Assembly: GCA_003105185.1 (NCBI GenBank)
Contig: PQAJ01000177.1
Coordinates: 14,848 to 78,847 of the forward strand
Origin: Holophagae bacterium
GTDB lineage: Bacteria; Acidobacteriota; Thermoanaerobaculia; Thermoanaerobaculales; Sulfomarinibacteraceae
Length of the DNA: 64,000 nt
Reading direction: 5' to 3'
Made by a program: the position numbers and the translations under genes. Shown piece by piece: positions 11,224 through 46,189 of this stretch; position 1 is the stretch's first letter; every line of letters starts with the position of its first letter. The notes under the pieces are model-generated. The model ran no database searches and was not told the DNA's origin. It saw only the letters and a list, made by a program, of their open reading frames with translations.

Positions 11224-12156
11224 TCAGCGGTGGCCGATGAGCACCGCGAGGGCAGTGATGGTGAAGCCCACCCCTGCGATGATGATCTGCGGGTCGGTGA
11301 AGAGGATGCGGTCGGGGGCGTCGGTGCTGCGCGGGCCGTTCAGCAGGAGCAGGTAGCGGAAGAGCGCGAACGCCGCGAAGGGGATGGTCAGCGCCATCGA
11401 ACCGTCGGAAGGCACGCGCGCGGATTCGATGGTATAGAGCGAGTAGCTGAGCAGCACCGAAGCCGCGCTGATGGTGAGCATCTGCGCGAGGATGTCGCCG
11501 TTGTAGTGCGCGAGCGACGGGCGGTGGCGGGCTGCTTCGGGGCCGAGCTGGCGGTATTCGGCCCAGCGCTTGCTGCAGGCGAAGAAGAACGCGCCGAAGC
11601 TCGAACAGACGTAGAGCCACGGGCTGATGTCGACTTCGATGGCAGCGGCGCCACCCACCGCGCGCCCGACCACGCCCGTGCAGAGGATGAGGATGTCGAG
11701 CACCGGAGCGCGCTTCAGGCCGAACGAGTAGGCGGTCATGAGGGCCGCATAGCCCGCCAGCACTCCCCCTGCCATCGGGTCCAGCGCGAACGCGGGCGGG
11801 AGGGCCACGAGCACGAGCACGCCGGCCGCGAGCGCTGCCGTGGGCACGGGCAGGTCGCCGCTGGCGATAGGGCGGAAGCGCTTGCGCGGGTGGAGACGGT
11901 CGGCCTCGCGGTCCTGGATGTCGTTGACCAGGTAGGTGGCGCTGGCGACCAGGCACCAGAGCCCGAAGAGGGCGCCGCTGCGCCAGAGCAACGGCCACCA
12001 GGTGTCGGCTTCGCGCGGGACCCAGGCGTCGCCGGCGCTGAAGATGAGGGCCGCGAAGACGATCAGGTTCTTCGGCCACTGGTAGGGCCGCATGGCGACC
12101 ACCAGCGCCGGCAGCACCGAGCGCCCGCCCGCTGCTACCGTCGTCGCCTCGGTCAT
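11224..12156 (-). CDS. UbiA-family prenyltransferase, decaprenyl-phosphate phosphoribosyltransferase-like
   Basis: Polytopic protein with RPYQWPKNLIVFAALIF and the Asp-rich motif YLVNDIQDREADRLHPRKRFRPIASG. The ATG at 12156 forms an ATGA overlap with the ybaK stop, indicating translational coupling. Confidence 0.7.
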   Translation of the reverse strand: MTEATTVAAGGRSVLPALVVAMRPYQWPKNLIVFAALIFSAGDAWVPREADTWWPLLWRSGALFGLWCLVASATYLVNDIQDREADRLHPRKRFRPIASGDLPVPTAALAAGVLVLVALPPAFALDPMAGGVLAGYAALMTAYSFGLKRAPVLDILILCTGVVGRAVGGAAAIEVDISPWLYVCSSFGAFFFACSKRWAEYRQLGPEAARHRPSLAHYNGDILAQMLTISAASVLLSYSLYTIESARVPSDGSMALTIPFAAFALFRYLLLLNGPRSTDAPDRILFTDPQIIIAGVGFTITALAVLIGHR

Positions 12157-12635
12157 CCTGGCGACCGTACCACTGCGGCCCACTGACCGTTGACGGCGCG
12201 GACCAGGTCTTCGGTGCGGGCGGGGAAGACGGCGTTCGGGGCGCCGGCCGCGGCCCAGACCTCGTCGAAGCGCTTGAGCGAGTCATCGACGACCACGTCG
12301 ACCGGCTTCGGCCAGCCCACGGGCGCGACGCCGCCGACGGGGTAGCCGGTGTATTCCATGACCTCGGCGGGGGTACCCATCTTCAGCTTCTTGCGTCCGA
12401 CGCCGAGGATGGGCGCGAGCAGGGCGGTATCGACCTGGCGGTCGCCGGCGGCGAGGACCATGGTCGGGCGGCTTTCGGCCATGAAGAAGAGGGTCTTGAC
12501 GATCTGCCCGAGCGCGCAGCCGACCGCGTCGGCGGCTTCCTGGGCGGTGTGGGTGCTGCCGTCATCGAAGACGCGCACCCGCCCGGGGAGTCCGAGGGCG
12601 TCGAGGGCCTGTTGCACGCGTTCGGGGGAAGACAC
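12153..12635 (-). CDS. YbaK/EbsC-type aminoacyl-tRNA deacylase domain protein
   Basis: GTG at 12635 (VSSPERVQQALDALG...) gives 160 aa with GQIVKTLFFMAE and TGYPVGGVAPVG, typical of YbaK/ProX editing domains. The longer ORF extending to 12758 would run through repeat DNA. Confidence 0.75.
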   Translation of the reverse strand: MSSPERVQQALDALGLPGRVRVFDDGSTHTAQEAADAVGCALGQIVKTLFFMAESRPTMVLAAGDRQVDTALLAPILGVGRKKLKMGTPAEVMEYTGYPVGGVAPVGWPKPVDVVVDDSLKRFDEVWAAAGAPNAVFPARTEDLVRAVNGQWAAVVRSPG

Positions 12636-12640
12636 GCGGG

Positions 12641-12679
12641 AATTGTCGAGTGTCGAGGGGCGGATTGTCGATTCGGGGG
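12641..12679. repeat. heptamer tandem array (a), TGTCGA/AATCGAC type, degenerate
   Basis: aattgtcgagtgtcgaggggcggattgtcgattcggggg. It aligns over its whole length with array (f) at 46057..46094. It ends 5 nt from the ybaK GTG. Confidence 0.8.
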
Positions 12680-12685
12680 TTGGGG

Positions 12686-12861
12686 GACTCGCAGTCGCGC
12701 GGCTCCGCCCCCGCTTAATGACCCTGACGTTCGCGGCAGGCTCCCAAGGTCCCCGCACCCCCGCGCCACGGCCGAAGGCCGGGCGCGGGCAGGAGGCAGG
12801 CCGGCGTCCGGGCTGGGTGGTTGGTTGGGGTGAATAAGCGGGGGCGGAGCCCCGCGACTCC
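12686..12861. repeat. REPIN-like element, left copy
   Basis: Ends are inverted repeats (cagtcgcgcggctccgcccccgctt ... aagcgggggcggagccccgcgactcc), each containing an imperfect GCGGGGC/GCCCCGC palindrome. The core ggccgaaggccgggcgcgggcaggaggcaggccggcgtccgggctgggtggttggttggggtgaataagcggggg is identical to the right copy. Confidence 0.8.
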
Positions 12862-12877
12862 GGTATGATGACGTGTC

Positions 12878-13363
12878 GTGCGGTATCCCAAGACGATTCG
12901 CCGGCCCGACAAGGCTGAGTATGCTGATGTCGAACGCTGCTTCCACCTGACCATCCGTGCTCACCCGGAGGTGCATCGTTTCGCTCCGGCAGTTGCGGAG
13001 GCTGTCTGGCGCTCTGTCCTGCAGCAACGCGATCTGCCGCACGTCGAACTGCACGCCGCCTGTCTCATGCCCGACCACCTCCACCTGCTCGTTTCGCCGC
13101 GTGAGCGGGACATCATCGCTTTCGTGCGGACGTGGAAGTCGTGGACAACCCGGCTCGCTCGCGAAGCCGGGCACGCGTTGCCACTCTGGCAGCCGGGCAT
13201 GTGGGATCGCACCTGCCGTGATGAGGCCGACTTCGAGGTGACCGCCACCTATATCGTTCAGAACCCGGTGGTTGCGGGTCTGGTGGACGATGCCAGCCAA
13301 TGGCCGCACACGTGGGCGTTTTGGATGGAGTCGCGGGGCTCTGCCCCCGCTTCATGGCCCTGA
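12878..13363 (+). CDS. REP-associated tyrosine transposase (RAYT, IS200/IS605 Y1 HUH superfamily)
   Basis: 161 aa with a GTG start, the HUH motif in MPDHLHLLVSP and a catalytic-Tyr region TATYIVQNPVVAGLVDDASQWPH. The last ~12 codons and the stop are encoded by the right REPIN. Confidence 0.8.
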   Translation: MRYPKTIRRPDKAEYADVERCFHLTIRAHPEVHRFAPAVAEAVWRSVLQQRDLPHVELHAACLMPDHLHLLVSPRERDIIAFVRTWKSWTTRLAREAGHALPLWQPGMWDRTCRDEADFEVTATYIVQNPVVAGLVDDASQWPHTWAFWMESRGSAPASWP

Positions 13364-13500
13364 CGCTCGCGGCCAGCCCACCTGTTTTCGCACACCCCCC
13401 CGCGCCATGGCCGAAGGCCGGGCGCGGGCAGGAGGCAGGCCGGCGTCCGGGCTGGGTGGTTGGTTGGGGTGAATAAGCGGGGGCAGAGCCCCGCGCCTCC
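13327..13500. repeat. REPIN-like element, right copy
   Basis: ggagtcgcggggctctgcccccgctt ... aagcgggggcagagccccgcgcctcc, in the same orientation as the left copy. It ends 13 nt before the tlyA ATG. Confidence 0.8.
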
Positions 13501-13513
13501 GTACAATTCCCCC

Positions 13514-14257
13514 ATGCCACGCCTCCGCGCTGACCTGCTCCTCCTCCAACGCAACCTGGCGCCGACGCGCGAGGCGGCGCAGCGGCTCATTTTGGCCGGG
13601 CGGGTGCGGTCGGGGACGCTGGTGCTTGTCAAGCCCTCGCAGATGCTGGCGGAGGATGCCGAGCTCGCGGTCTCGGAGCCGGAACGGTACGTCTCGCGCG
13701 GGGGGCACAAGCTCGAAGGCGCGCTGTCCGGGTTCGGGATCGACGTGACCGGGTTGCGCTGCCTCGACCTCGGCGCTTCAACCGGCGGGTTCACCGATTG
13801 CCTGTTGCAGCACGGGGCGGCCTCGGTGTTCGCGGTCGACGTGGGGCGGGCTCAGCTGCACCAGCGCCTGCGCGAGGACCCGCGCGTGACGCTGCTCGAA
13901 GGCACGAACGCGCGCGCTCTGCCGGAGCTGCCGCCCATCGACTTCTTCGTGGCCGACCTGTCGTTCATCTCGCTGGCGAAGGTGTTGCCCTCGGTGGCGG
14001 AGCGGCTGGCGCCGGGCACGCCGGGGGTGGTGCTGCTCAAGCCCCAGTTCGAAGCCGGGCCGAAGGACGTGCCCCGCGGCGGAGTCATCCGCGACGGAGC
14101 GGTGTTGCAGCGCGTTTGTGACGAGTTCGTAAACCGCGCGACGAGCGAGGGGTGGCGCGTCTGTGGCATCATTCCCTCGCCCATTCGCGGAGGCGATGGC
14201 AATACGGAGTTTCTCGTGCATCTGATCTCGCCCTCGGGTCGTGTCGAACCATGCTGA
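13514..14257 (+). CDS. tlyA: TlyA-family rRNA 2'-O-methyltransferase
   Basis: ATG at 13514. It has an S4-like N-terminus (RADLLLLQRNLAPTREAAQRLILAGRV), YVSRGGHKL and the SAM motif LDLGASTGGFTDCLL. Confidence 0.85.
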   Translation: MPRLRADLLLLQRNLAPTREAAQRLILAGRVRSGTLVLVKPSQMLAEDAELAVSEPERYVSRGGHKLEGALSGFGIDVTGLRCLDLGASTGGFTDCLLQHGAASVFAVDVGRAQLHQRLREDPRVTLLEGTNARALPELPPIDFFVADLSFISLAKVLPSVAERLAPGTPGVVLLKPQFEAGPKDVPRGGVIRDGAVLQRVCDEFVNRATSEGWRVCGIIPSPIRGGDGNTEFLVHLISPSGRVEPC

Positions 14258-18002: not shown

Positions 18003-18059
18003 CAAGAAGGTCCTCCTGTAGTGAGAGGAGGAAAAGTATACTAACTCTACTGAGCGATC

Positions 18060-25786: not shown

Positions 25787-26302
25787 ATGATCGTATTCCT
25801 GAACGGGCCGTTCGGGGTGGGTAAGTCCACGACGGCACGTATCCTGGCGACGCTCCTCCCACAGGCCGTGCACTACAACCCGGAGCACATTGGGGCCGGG
25901 CTCAGGATGGCTTTCGGGCCGCTCTACCGGGTGACGGACTACCAGGACGTTGCTGCGTGGCGGCGGCTCGTGCCCGTCGGTGCGCGATTGTGCCGGCTCC
26001 GCTATCGGACCGTGGTGATGCCGATGACAGTCTGGCGCCGAGACTACCTGGATGAACTCGTTGAGAGGCTGCAGTGCGTCGATGATGACCTGCGCCTGTT
26101 CCAGTTGACCGCGCCCGCGGATGAAGTCCGGCGGCGAGTGCTCGGGAGGGCTGACGCCCGGGAAGGCCACGACTGGTGGTGGTCGCACCTCGAGTCCGGG
26201 CTGGCGATGGCCCGAGACCCCGCCTTCGGCGAGACGGTCGACACAGCCGGACTGTCGCCGCTGCAGGTGGCATCGACGATTGCCGCCCGCATCCGCGCCT
26301 GA
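25787..26302 (+). CDS. P-loop NTPase/kinase (TmrB or chloramphenicol-phosphotransferase-like)
   Basis: 171 aa starting MIVFLNGPFGVGKSTTARILA (Walker A at the extreme N-terminus), with the size and layout of small-molecule kinases. Confidence 0.55.
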   Translation: MIVFLNGPFGVGKSTTARILATLLPQAVHYNPEHIGAGLRMAFGPLYRVTDYQDVAAWRRLVPVGARLCRLRYRTVVMPMTVWRRDYLDELVERLQCVDDDLRLFQLTAPADEVRRRVLGRADAREGHDWWWSHLESGLAMARDPAFGETVDTAGLSPLQVASTIAARIRA

Positions 26303-27565: not shown

Positions 27566-27615
27566 GGGCCGATTCCTTGCCCGAACTCACGGCCAACAGC
27601 TATCCTGAACGGTAC

Positions 27616-27692
27616 GGCGCATTCGTCTAGTGGCCTAGGACACCGCCCTCTCAAGGCGGAGATCAGGGGTTCGAATCCCCTATGCGCTACCA
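27616..27692 (+). tRNA. tRNA-Glu (anticodon CTC), CCA encoded
   Basis: ggcgcattcgtctagtggcctaggacaccgccctCTCaaggcggagatcaggggttcgaatcccctatgcgctacca. A cloverleaf can be drawn with a 7-bp acceptor stem (first pair G-U), anticodon loop ctCTCaa and T loop ttcgaat. Confidence 0.9.
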
Positions 27693-29361: not shown

Positions 29362-29379
29362 GCTACGCTGGAACTCCTC

Positions 29380-29456
29380 GGCGCGTTCGTCTAGAGGCCT
29401 AGGACGCCGCCCTTTCAAGGCGGAGATCAGGGGTTCGAATCCCCTACGCGCTACCA
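29380..29456 (+). tRNA. tRNA-Glu (anticodon TTC), CCA encoded
   Basis: ggcgcgttcgtctagaggcctaggacgccgccctTTCaaggcggagatcaggggttcgaatcccctacgcgctacca. It differs from the first copy at 5 positions, including a compensated acceptor-stem pair. It is followed by an imperfect hairpin at 29471..29494 and then TTT. Confidence 0.9.
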
Positions 29457-43901: not shown

Positions 43902-44462
43902 CTACTGCACCCGTTCGATGTAGGCCCCGCTGTCGGTGTTGACGCGGATCTTCGTGCCTTCTTCGATGAAGAGCGGGACCTGGACGACAAGGCCGGTTTC
44001 GACGGTTGCGGGCTTCGTGCCGCCCGTTGCGGTGTCACCCTTGAAGCCGGGGTCGGTCACGGTGACAGTGAGTTCGACTGAGATGGGCATCTCGACGCCG
44101 ATGACTTCGTCGCCGTAGAGGACGACCTCGCAGGTGTCGTTCTCCTTCAGGTACTTATTCGCGTCGCCCACCTTCTCGGCGCCCACGGGGATCTGCTCGA
44201 AGGTTTCCGTGTTCATGAAGTAGTAGAACTGGTCGTCGGAATAGAGGTATTGCATCTCGCGGCGCTCGACGCGGGCCCGGTTGAACTTGGTCCCGGCCTG
44301 GAAGGTCTGCTCGATGATCGAGCCGGAACGCACGTCGCGGAACTTGATTTTGACCTGGGCCGAGCCGCGGCCCGTCTTGATGTGGGAATAGTCCATGATC
44401 GAGTAGAGCTTTCCATCGAGTTCGATGGTGGCGCCCTTCTTCAGTTCGCCGGTGGAAATCAC
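43902..44462 (-). CDS. efp: translation elongation factor P
   Basis: 186 aa starting MISTGELKKGATIELDGKLYSIMDYSHIKTGRGSAQVKIKFRD, with three OB/KOW-like domains. Confidence 0.95.
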   Translation of the reverse strand: MISTGELKKGATIELDGKLYSIMDYSHIKTGRGSAQVKIKFRDVRSGSIIEQTFQAGTKFNRARVERREMQYLYSDDQFYYFMNTETFEQIPVGAEKVGDANKYLKENDTCEVVLYGDEVIGVEMPISVELTVTVTDPGFKGDTATGGTKPATVETGLVVQVPLFIEEGTKIRVNTDSGAYIERVQ

Positions 44463-44465
44463 GAG

Positions 44466-45608
44466 TCACACTCCTGCGGGTGTCAGTTTTCGCGCATGGC
44501 TGAGCACGCGGGCCCGGCCGTTTTCGAGGACCACGATGTCTTCGATCCTCACGCCGCCCCATCCGGGCAGATAGATGCCGGGCTCAATGGTAAACACCAT
44601 TCCCTCTTCCAAGACATCTTCGGACGATGTTCCAAGGTACGGGTCTTCGTGGACATCGAGCCCGACCCCGTGCCCCAGGCCGTGCCCGAAGCGATCGCCG
44701 TAGCCCGCCGCGGCGATTACGTCCTGTGCGAGCAGGTGTGCGTCCGAGGCCTTCATGCCGGCTTCGATACCTGCGATCGCCGCCTGCTGGGCCTCGAAGA
44801 CGATGCCGTAAACCTCGCGGAACTTCGCATCCGGCTGACCGATGACAACCGTGCGCGTGAGGTCGCTGCAGTACCCCTCGTAGCGCGCGCCCATGTCGAT
44901 GACCACCGGCCGATCGGTGCCCAGCCGCTCCGCGCGGGGGCTCGCATGTGGCATGGCGCTCCACGGCCCCCCGGCGACGATCGTCGGGAACGAGATGTCT
45001 TCACCGCCCGCCGCCTTCACGTTCGCGGCGAAGACCTCGGCGGCTTCGAGTTCGGTCATCTCCGGAGTGAGCGCAGTCTCCAGCCGTTCGAAGGCGTCAT
45101 CGGAGATGTGGATCGCGCGCTGGAGGAGGGCGAGCTCCTCCGGGTCTTTCTGCCGGCGGAGTTTCTCGATGATGCCCTTGGCCGGGACGAACTCGGGGCG
45201 GTCTGGTCCGGGCAGTGGCTCCAGGTAGTCGAGCATCGAAAGGTAACCCGCGTAGGAGAGGTCCCGCGTGGAGACTCCGACGCGTTTCCCGGCGAGGTCC
45301 GCTTCCCCGATGAGCTTCGGGAACCACTCCTTGCGCGCGCCGAGGGCAGGAAAGACTTCGAAGCCGCGGGGACCGCACTCGCGTTCGGCCTGTTCGATGT
45401 AGCGAAAGTCGGCGGCGAAGATGGCCCGGTCGCGGGTGACCAGCACCTGGCCTGTCGAGCCGGTGAAGCCGCTGATGTACCGGCGCGTGGCGGCGCCCAG
45501 CTCCTCTTCGCCGGGCGCGGAGACGAGGAGCGCGTCGAGGTTGCGCTCCTGGAGCTCGATGCGGATCCGGGTGAGGCGGTCGGTCATGGCGGCTCCCGCC
45601 GGTGTCAC
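44466..45608 (-). CDS. pepP: Xaa-Pro aminopeptidase (M24B family)
   Basis: It has the M24 metal-ligand contexts ([47 protein letters not shown]). The GTG at 45608 forms a GTGA overlap with the aroQ stop, and an alternative ATG lies at 45587. Confidence 0.88.
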
Positions 45609-46051
45609 GCCCCGGCCCGCGCCTCCAGGTGGTCGACGAGGAGGTTGGTCGCGACAGTGTAGCCAGCGCGACCCAGCCCGGTCACCTGCCCGAGGCAGAC
45701 CGGGGCGATGAAGGAGCGGTGGCGGAAGCCTTCCCGCGCGTGGGTGTTCGAGATGTGGACCTCGACGACCGGGAGCTGGACAGCCTCGATCGCGTCGCGG
45801 AGCGCTACCGACGTGTGGGTGTAGGCCCCGGCGTTGATGACGACGCCATCGGCCAGCTTGCGGTGCTCGTGGAGGAAATCGATGAGCGAGCCCTCGTGGT
45901 TGCTCTGGTAGCAGAGGACGGCCGCCCCCCGCGCTCCCGCCGCGGCTGCAACGTCGGCCTCAATGTCGAGCAGCGTGGTCGTGCCGTAGACAGCCGGGTT
46001 GCGCTCGCCGAGGAGGTTCAGGTTCGGCCCGTGGACGAGGAGCAGGTTCAC
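45605..46051 (-). CDS. aroQ: type II 3-dehydroquinate dehydratase
   Basis: GTG at 46051 gives [48 protein letters not shown] and [12 protein letters not shown] are present. An upstream GTG at 46105 would add 18 aa encoded by the heptamer array. Confidence 0.9.
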
Positions 46052-46056
46052 GGGTG

Positions 46057-46094
46057 AATTGTCGATTGTCGATTGGCGGTTGTCGATTGGGTGG
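46057..46094. repeat. heptamer tandem array (f), ATTGTCG (= AATCGAC on minus) type
   Basis: aattgtcg attgtcg attgGcg Gttgtcg attgGGtgg. It ends 5 nt from the aroQ GTG and is homologous to array (a). Confidence 0.85.
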
Positions 46095-46189
46095 TAGCGC
46101 GGCACCGGTTAACACGGAGGCCGGGAGACAGGAAGAATTGGAAGAAACACTGCCCGCACTGTGGAGGCCCTCTCCGGTAGACTTTGGCC

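Follow-up and report, generated by a model that had tools for sequence, protein, structure and literature searches.

The closest description in the literature to the sequence element considered here is that of the TAACTGA repeats of marine Beggiatoaceae, Cyanobacteria and Bacteroidetes (MacGregor 2015, PMC4679880), tandem heptamers in two to six copies, often 'split' by a related 7-mer, which stand just before start codons without ribosome-binding sites. A post-transcriptional role has been suggested for them (PMC4679880). In Actinobacteria and Deinococcus-Thermus, leaderless genes are recognised by a TANNNT hexamer that precedes the start codon by about 12 nt (Zheng et al. 2011, PMC3160421), and for translation in mycobacteria a 5'-terminal ATG or GTG is both required and sufficient (Shell et al. 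2015, PMC4633059); for the Chloroflexi, the published estimate of leaderless genes is only ~5% (PMC3160421). A further point of comparison is offered by Streptomyces promoters, where heptameric direct repeats within or next to the -35 region form the operators of SARP proteins (PMC5930380).

Here we examine two similar blocks in a stretch of 64,000 nt of contig PQAJ01000177.1 (hereafter 'the window'), each composed of four heptamers and each lying directly upstream of a gene, one ybaK-like and the other aroQ. We consider it probable that both are sigma-70 promoters built from a repeat, with transcription starting at the start codon and yielding a leaderless mRNA. Their likeness would then be that of one repeat-built type of promoter, and would owe nothing to shared regulation or to a shared protein.

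12636..12679, minus strand: predicted promoter block of the ybaK-like gene, a degenerate four-unit heptamer array (sequence, alignment, promoter scan)
12671-12665, minus strand: unit 1 of the ybaK-like block, TCGACAA
12664-12657, minus strand: unit 2 of the ybaK-like block, TCCGCCCC
12656-12650, minus strand: unit 3 of the ybaK-like block, TCGACAC
12649-12643, minus strand: unit 4 of the ybaK-like block, TCGACAA
46052..46094, minus strand: predicted promoter block of aroQ, a four-unit heptamer array (sequence, alignment, promoter scan, orthologues)
46086-46080, minus strand: unit 1 of the aroQ block, TCGACAA
46079-46073, minus strand: unit 2 of the aroQ block, CCGCCAA
46072-46066, minus strand: unit 3 of the aroQ block, TCGACAA
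46065-46059, minus strand: unit 4 of the aroQ block, TCGACAA

Like the TAACTGA repeats, these blocks are tandem heptamers, precede unrelated genes in several phyla and are made of a unit that forms long arrays elsewhere. They differ in unit, spacing and proposed mechanism: the TAACTGA repeat mostly ends 1 nt before the start and varies in copy number, whereas here four copies of TCGACAA end 5-6 nt before it, and the TAACTGA unit gives, on our inspection, no -35/-10 pair. With this unit and this array end, the blocks were not classed as TAACTGA-type repeats. To the leaderless promoters of high-GC bacteria (PMC3160421, PMC4633059) the likeness extends from the position of the -10 (-12 to -7), the lack of a Shine-Dalgarno and the ATG or GTG predicted as first codon of the transcript to the wider setting, namely first genes of transcription units, internal genes that keep their Shine-Dalgarno, and diverse downstream genes. 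The blocks depart from those promoters in the G at the first -10 base, a near-consensus -35, the tandem heptamer array and C-rich flanks, and in a host read as Chloroflexota, where leaderless genes are estimated to be rare. SARP operators share the heptameric direct repeats at the -35 region, but their periodicity is 11 bp (heptamer plus 4-bp spacer) against 7 bp here, they serve as binding sites for pathway-specific activators of antibiotic gene clusters and do not adjoin start codons; on periodicity, the blocks were not placed among them. Short tandem repeats also belong to the promoter regions of phase-variable genes, such as the 7-bp repeats upstream of the hmw genes of H. influenzae and the TTTTGAT repeats of the V. 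cholerae ctx promoter. In those tracts copy number tunes expression or gives ToxR sites, and the repeats are not known to supply both hexamers, unlike the present blocks, which are fixed at four copies and precede housekeeping genes.

Leaderless sigma-70 promoters are thus well known, whereas the literature searched yielded no promoter that consists wholly of a four-unit tandem heptamer and recurs before unrelated genes in two phyla. Queries with the TCGACAA heptamer (six of its seven rotations and the tandem) returned no relevant paper, and those on leaderless genes in Dehalococcoidia nothing relevant. That the promoter is made from a repeat is most likely the sole unusual point of the blocks.

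The two blocks and their genes

Read on the minus strand, the block of the ybaK-like gene (12679-12636) is cccccgAATCGACAATCCGCCCCTCGACACTCGACAATTcccgcGTG, followed by GTG at 12635-12633, and that of aroQ (46094-46052) is ccacccAATCGACAA-CCGCCAATCGACAATCGACAATTcacccGTG, followed by GTG at 46051-46049. Pairwise alignment bears out the close match to which the first-pass annotation had drawn attention: the similarity spans about 45 nt with one 1-nt indel, and reaches from the GTG on one side to about 6 nt upstream of the first heptamer on the other, beyond which the flanks have only C-richness in common. The chance expectation for the consensus drawn up in that annotation is 0.00 in the window, and TCGACAA occurs there 16 times against 6.2 expected, with five of the 16 copies inside the two blocks. 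A T directly follows unit 4 in both arrays, and both carry CCGCC in unit 2; in heptamer register, the unit-2 substitution truly common to the two is a single one, and the common CCGCC may stem from gene conversion, selection or parallel GC-biased drift. The minus-strand reading agrees with the earlier statement that the blocks end 5 nt before both GTG starts. It was also right that neither gene has a Shine-Dalgarno, no purine-rich one being found in the last 20 nt before either start, in contrast to the BNR gene of the window (AGGAGGA, 5 nt, then TTG at 18005).

12153..12635, minus strand: YbaK/ProX-like aminoacyl-tRNA trans-editing protein, 160 aa, GTG start, predicted leaderless (Pfam tRNA_edit, homologue 2cx5)
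45605..46051, minus strand: aroQ, type II 3-dehydroquinate dehydratase, 148 aa, GTG start (Pfam DHquinase_II, homologue 1gqo)
45608-44466, minus strand: Xaa-Pro-type M24 peptidase, downstream in the presumed aroQ operon
44462-43902, minus strand: efp, downstream in the presumed aroQ operon, with its own Shine-Dalgarno AGGAG

The encoded N-termini, of a tRNA_edit and a DHquinase_II protein, are indeed unrelated, and the similarity lies in the leader, as had been claimed, where it takes the form of a heptamer-based non-coding cis element. The gene aroQ heads a cluster of aroQ, M24 peptidase and efp (43902-46051, minus strand), an order which we take to be the yqhS-yqhT-efp order of Bacillus subtilis.

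Judged from the sequences, the GTGs directly after the blocks are the true starts of both genes, because homologues and Pfam models are collinear with the short forms, the upstream GTG is not kept and the two blocks differ by an indel. Residue 3 of AroQ corresponds to residue 3 in the B. subtilis enzyme (143 aa, 1gqo) and to position 2 of the Pfam model, and residue 3 of the YbaK-like protein to residue 6 in TTHA1699 of Thermus (158 aa, 2cx5). Mis-assigned starts had been put forward as one explanation of the match, in which case the blocks would code for N-terminal extensions running from GTGs at 46105 (aroQ) and 12758 (ybaK). The heptamer contains no stop codon in any frame and the window does have in-frame upstream GTGs, yet the frame is shifted by the 1-nt indel between the two blocks, a 1-nt deletion in the orthologous locus L049 takes the GTG at 46105 out of frame, and the alternative ybaK-like starts are not kept in the orthologous locus L055. 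With solved homologues and Pfam models that begin at residues 2-6 of the short forms, a coding function for the blocks, including the upstream aroQ start that the first-pass annotation had singled out, is scarcely credible.

Proposed promoter anatomy

A consensus scan for sigma-70-type hexamer pairs, compared with shuffled sequence, resolves both blocks into the parts of a promoter.

12666..12671, minus strand: predicted -35 hexamer of the ybaK-like gene, TCGACA, 5/6 to TTGACA (promoter scan, 0.0 expected in shuffles)
12642..12647, minus strand: predicted -10 hexamer of the ybaK-like gene, GACAAT, with A2 and T6, after a spacer of 18 nt (promoter scan)
12636..12641, minus strand: discriminator of the ybaK-like gene, TCCCGC, 6 nt, pyrimidine-rich, with predicted transcription start at G 12635 (sigma-70 geometry)
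46081..46086, minus strand: predicted -35 hexamer of aroQ, TCGACA, 5/6 to TTGACA (promoter scan)
46058..46063, minus strand: predicted -10 hexamer of aroQ, GACAAT, after a spacer of 17 nt (promoter scan)

In each block the -35 falls on unit 1 and the -10 on unit 4. In an array of TCGACAA, GACAAT is offset by 2 nt from TCGACA, and this offset added to the length of three units gives the 23 nt that canonically lie between the starts of the two hexamers when the spacer is 17 nt. Of 19 related cases, 18 have a spacer of that length. GACAAT matches TATAAT at four of six positions in both blocks, including A2 and T6, and about zero sites of the form TCGACA-17/18 nt-GACAAT are expected in shuffles. 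The discriminator of aroQ, TCACCC, is likewise 6 nt long, which places the G of GTG 7 nt after the final T of the -10 in both genes, and the predicted transcription start has a pyrimidine at -1 and a purine at +1 in each. Sequence features typical of a sigma-70 promoter are found here (a -35, a -10, a spacer of 17 +/- 1 nt, and hexamers kept while the spacer drifts among orthologues), as are those typical of a leaderless one (a -10 at about -12 to -7, no Shine-Dalgarno, an enriched geometry and true start codons).

We propose that each block is a promoter for sigma-70, the housekeeping sigma factor, made of four tandem copies of TCGACAA, of which unit 1 would supply the -35 and unit 4 the -10. 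With the -10 ending at this distance from the GTG, RNA polymerase is predicted to initiate on the G itself; the transcript would have no 5' leader and would be translated by the leaderless route, which would account for the missing Shine-Dalgarno, since a leaderless mRNA needs none. The sequences directly show this geometry, how it is enriched and conserved, and that the start codons are correct; promoter activity and the position of the transcription start are what we infer from geometry and comparison, with leaderless translation as their predicted consequence. Of the earlier suggestion that the blocks are a shared cis-regulatory or translation-initiation element, the non-coding cis element stands; the evidence points to a promoter of transcription, through which the initiation of translation would be fixed only indirectly, by way of the leaderless mRNA.

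Some features run counter to this model. At the first -10 position G takes the place of the customary T, and the spacer of ybaK measures 18 nt, both of them sub-optimal, and both genes start with GTG. GTG is a poor leaderless start in E. coli. It is functional as a leaderless start in mycobacteria (PMC4633059).

On the coding strand upstream of both blocks the promoter scan found no other promoter-like site. A divergent promoter-like site on the plus strand at 46109-46138 was taken as chance, its -10 not being kept in orthologues. There is no Rfam match at the blocks, two tRNAs being the only ones above gathering score in the whole window, and the blocks with early coding sequence, folded against shuffles, have no unusual RNA structure (z-scores -0.9 and -0.2); with neither an Rfam family nor a stable structure, a known cis-regulatory RNA such as a riboswitch, leader or attenuator was set aside.

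These observations bear on a different use of the same position, in which the block would be transcribed within a 5' UTR and act as an unstructured CA-rich, Shine-Dalgarno-independent translation enhancer or as a protein-binding site. The predicted lack of structure in the block RNA and the lack of a Shine-Dalgarno suit that reading, as does the precedent of the TAACTGA repeats. However, no other promoter-like site is seen further upstream on the coding strand, and an RNA enhancer would need neither a -35/-10 pair at 17-18 nt nor a fixed 6-nt distance held in common with the unrelated TANNNT boxes of the genome described below. We regard it as decidedly improbable, and the orthologues and the copy number of the arrays bear on it further.

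Conservation and exchange among orthologues

The loci matching the window comprise a metagenome contig at 99% identity (L133), a Dehalococcoidia MAG at 91% (L080) and a Chloroflexota MAG at 86-88% (L049), to which L055 adds a match of 94-97% over the ybaK locus. From these matches the window reads as a Chloroflexota lineage, apparently of Dehalococcoidia type. L055 (JADLBU010000111.1) is a 4.8-kb contig in a MAG labelled Phycisphaerales, yet of the near identity just given, and is probably mis-binned.

Upstream of aroQ, in four genomes 87-99% identical, units 1, 3 and 4 are invariant, all variation being confined to unit 2 and the discriminator. L080 and L049 have a perfect (TCGACAA)4 array; relative to them the window carries only two substitutions, both in unit 2, and an altered discriminator. 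The orthologues of xerC and tlyA, two genes of the window with a -10 box at the same distance from the start, similarly keep the -10 and the 6-nt distance while the discriminator varies. A more distant pair, the orthologous 207-aa genes of L070 and L095 (82% amino acid identity), keeps TCGACA, GACAAT and the 6-nt distance, while the 5' half of the spacer differs and the DNA upstream of about -37 is essentially unalignable. Conservation that begins at about -37 argues against the 5'-UTR reading, although at aroQ conservation runs some 35 nt further upstream. That stretch (CCTCCGTGTTAACCGGTGCCGCGCTACCACCC; 46095-46130, minus strand), upstream of the aroQ block, is nearly invariant in the four orthologous loci, with no conservation beyond it, and could be an UP-like or activator site.

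A further comparison is with L125, whose identity to the window over the ubiA-like/ybaK region is 69.5%. There the ybaK orthologue has TACGCT, 6 nt and GTG (2389, minus strand), a generic box without heptamers, and the tlyA orthologue has the units TCGACAA, CCGCCGG, GTGGCAA and TCGACAAT, then 6 nt and ATG (2467, plus strand), so that positions 2387-2469 hold back-to-back divergent promoter sequences whose types are swapped relative to the window. Because this arrangement is the reverse of that in the window, the heptamer block and the generic -10 box appear to be interchangeable at the same start codons.

The swap also bears on the possibility that the array is an operator for a dedicated DNA-binding regulator of tandem TCGACAA, perhaps overlapping a promoter and bringing the genes behind it under common control. 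Proteins are known to bind heptameric direct repeats, the SARP operators that overlap the -35 being an example (PMC5930380), and some features go beyond the needs of a plain sigma-70 promoter: the conservation of unit 3, the C-rich flanks (cccAA...AATcccccc) found at many loci, and the CCGCC in unit 2 of both window blocks. Yet TCGACA, GACAAT and their distances persist where unrelated sequence has taken the place of the spacer units, the whole block can give way to a generic TANNNT box at the same start codon, the period of 7 bp is not the 10-11 bp of SARP/OmpR-type proteins, the downstream genes are functionally unrelated housekeeping genes, and the motif occurs, among the matches listed, in two phyla. 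An operator is in our judgement unlikely, though it deserves to be kept in mind.

Nor does the evidence favour the explanation that each block is a microsatellite or the end of a mobile or repeat element, inserted preferentially at the 5' ends of genes and without a function. The ybaK block does directly adjoin a REP/RAYT unit, and long (TCGACAA)n microsatellites unrelated to genes exist in many phyla. Against this, the aroQ block has no REP nearby and keeps the same position in orthologues 87-99% identical, the similarity between the blocks ends about 6 nt outside the heptamers, the block is unchanged in L055 where the REP region differs, and the bias of orientation and distance among public matches (23/71 vs 2/71 among the matches listed; see below) is unexpected for neutral microsatellites. 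The common insertion-site preference considered in the first-pass annotation finds no support in an aroQ block that is stable in orthologues, in unlike flanks and in a block that swaps with a generic -10 box, and we hold it to be very improbable. A larger mobile element or target-site duplication was also rejected, the flanks being alike only in C-richness and the CACCC on both sides of the aroQ block being absent in orthologues.

The adjoining unit is of some note in its own right. At 12690-13514 lies a REPtron-like unit, in which an IS200/Y1-transposase-like (RAYT-type) gene (12878-13363, plus strand) sits between two units of about 170 nt (12690-12862 and 13313-13514), inverted-repeat pairs with arms of 35-40 nt on AAGCGGGGGCGGAGCC(N)CGCG. 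All four copies of this motif in the window fall within 12690-13514, and the unit lies exactly between the divergent ybaK and tlyA promoters, an interval of 0.8 kb in the window vs 2.7 kb in L055.

The same geometry elsewhere in the window

Start codons (ATG or GTG) opening ORFs of at least 80 aa with high GC3 were compared with upstream hexamers, a -10-like hexamer being one with A2, T6 and at least 4/6 matches. Exactly 6 nt before these candidate starts there are ten -10-like hexamers against a mean of 1.8 at other offsets, and eight TANNNT hexamers against a mean of 1.1 (Poisson P ~2e-5 in each case).

1220, 13514, 21402, 25787, 28088, 29642, 40116, 47378, 49745: start codons with a TANNNT-type -10 box 6 nt (once 7 nt) upstream and no Shine-Dalgarno
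13502..13516, plus strand: tlyA-like rRNA methyltransferase start, TACAAT, tccccc, ATG, with the S4 domain from residue 5
47378: start of xerC, with a -10 box at the 6-nt geometry
49745: start preceded by TTGACA-16-TATCCT

The Pfam domains of tlyA and of the AAA-domain gene at 25787 begin at residues 3-5, the -35 is weak in most of these other leaderless-type promoters, and operon-internal genes such as efp at 44462 keep a GGAGG-type Shine-Dalgarno. Leaderless initiation thus seems to be common at first genes of transcription units in the genome from which the window comes, although the published figure for the phylum is about 5%. Both tRNA genes also have a -10-like hexamer, TATCCT and TACGCT (27601-27616 and 29364-29380), ending 9-10 nt before the mature 5' end, which suggests very short tRNA leaders.

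Distribution in public genomes

Species-representative genomes, scanned with the pattern TCGACA-N8-11-TCGACA-N-TCGACAAT, gave at least 120 loci. Among the matches listed, the start of the first long ORF falls 6-8 nt after GACAAT in 23 of 71 high-GC arrays read forward, vs 2 of 71 in the reverse-orientation control (P 3e-6). All start-adjacent arrays among the matches listed have exactly four units, whereas the TAACTGA repeats to which the 5'-UTR reading appeals come in two or more. The MAGs that carry them are labelled, among the matches listed, Chloroflexota (Tepidiformaceae, Dehalococcoidia, Anaerolineaceae) and Planctomycetota/Phycisphaerae, with single Acidobacteria and Neomarinimicrobiota MAGs besides. 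The genes that follow are unrelated (AroQ, YbaK-like, Zn-ribbon, MoaB-like, Trm112, HAD, DinB, luciferase-like), with domains that start from residues 1-6.

Most array loci came from patterns that force units 1, 3 and 4; in the small sample outside forced patterns (n=4), three of four GACAAT-N6-start cases have TCGACA 17 nt upstream, vs 7 of 312 for GACAAT elsewhere. A metagenome scan with the CCGCC variant, in which unit 3 was left free, gave 20 loci where units 2 and 3 vary, seven of them with a start at 6-9 nt. The low-GC matches to the 20-specified-base pattern (Bacteroidales, Desulfobacterales, Brachyspira and others) are long (TCGACAA)n microsatellites unrelated to starts, and were set aside.

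Repeats as a possible source of promoters

It is tempting to go one step further, and to regard (TCGACAA)4 as a self-contained 'microsatellite promoter', which recurs before many unrelated genes in at least two phyla, Chloroflexota and Planctomycetota, by repeat expansion, maintenance or spread, and whose unconstrained units 2 and 3 then decay. Four tandem copies would automatically complete a promoter, to which a 6-nt C-rich discriminator would add a precise leaderless start. In a stronger version, the conservation of unit 3 and of the C-rich flanks would reflect a dedicated factor or a growth-rate control signal. We offer the 'microsatellite promoter' as a tentative idea, about which doubt outweighs belief; if true, it would describe a general route of promoter birth and turnover.

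Several consequences may be drawn from the blocks. For annotation, the start codons of the ybaK-like gene and aroQ are fixed, and gene callers that rely on a Shine-Dalgarno would mis-start leaderless first genes in the genome of the window and its relatives. For promoter evolution, a four-unit heptamer amounting to a full promoter would be a testable example of one-step promoter creation by microsatellite expansion, and the apparent exchange of heptamer promoters with generic -10 boxes at the same start codon an example of promoter turnover. The block is, moreover, a candidate compact constitutive promoter for high-GC, hard-to-engineer phyla. Should transcription starts map elsewhere, it would instead be a second case of an unexplained, TAACTGA-like heptamer repeat before a start codon.

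The heptamer itself has a wider life in bacterial genomes. Perfect (TCGACAA)n runs of at least ten units occur at L013, L032, L048, L076, L102, L115 and other loci, with no relation to start codons, in MAGs of Desulfobacterales, Roseiflexaceae, Brachyspira, Burkholderiaceae, Verrucomicrobiales and Bacteroidales, and beside such long microsatellites stand the related heptamers TCGACAT, AATCAGC, AATCGGC and AATCGTC. Some genomes carry many TCGACAA/TCGACAT arrays, since a single Phycisphaera MAG, CAYQZH01, alone gave at least ten loci with them (L005, L018, L020, L058, L064, L067, L087, L093, L101 and L120).
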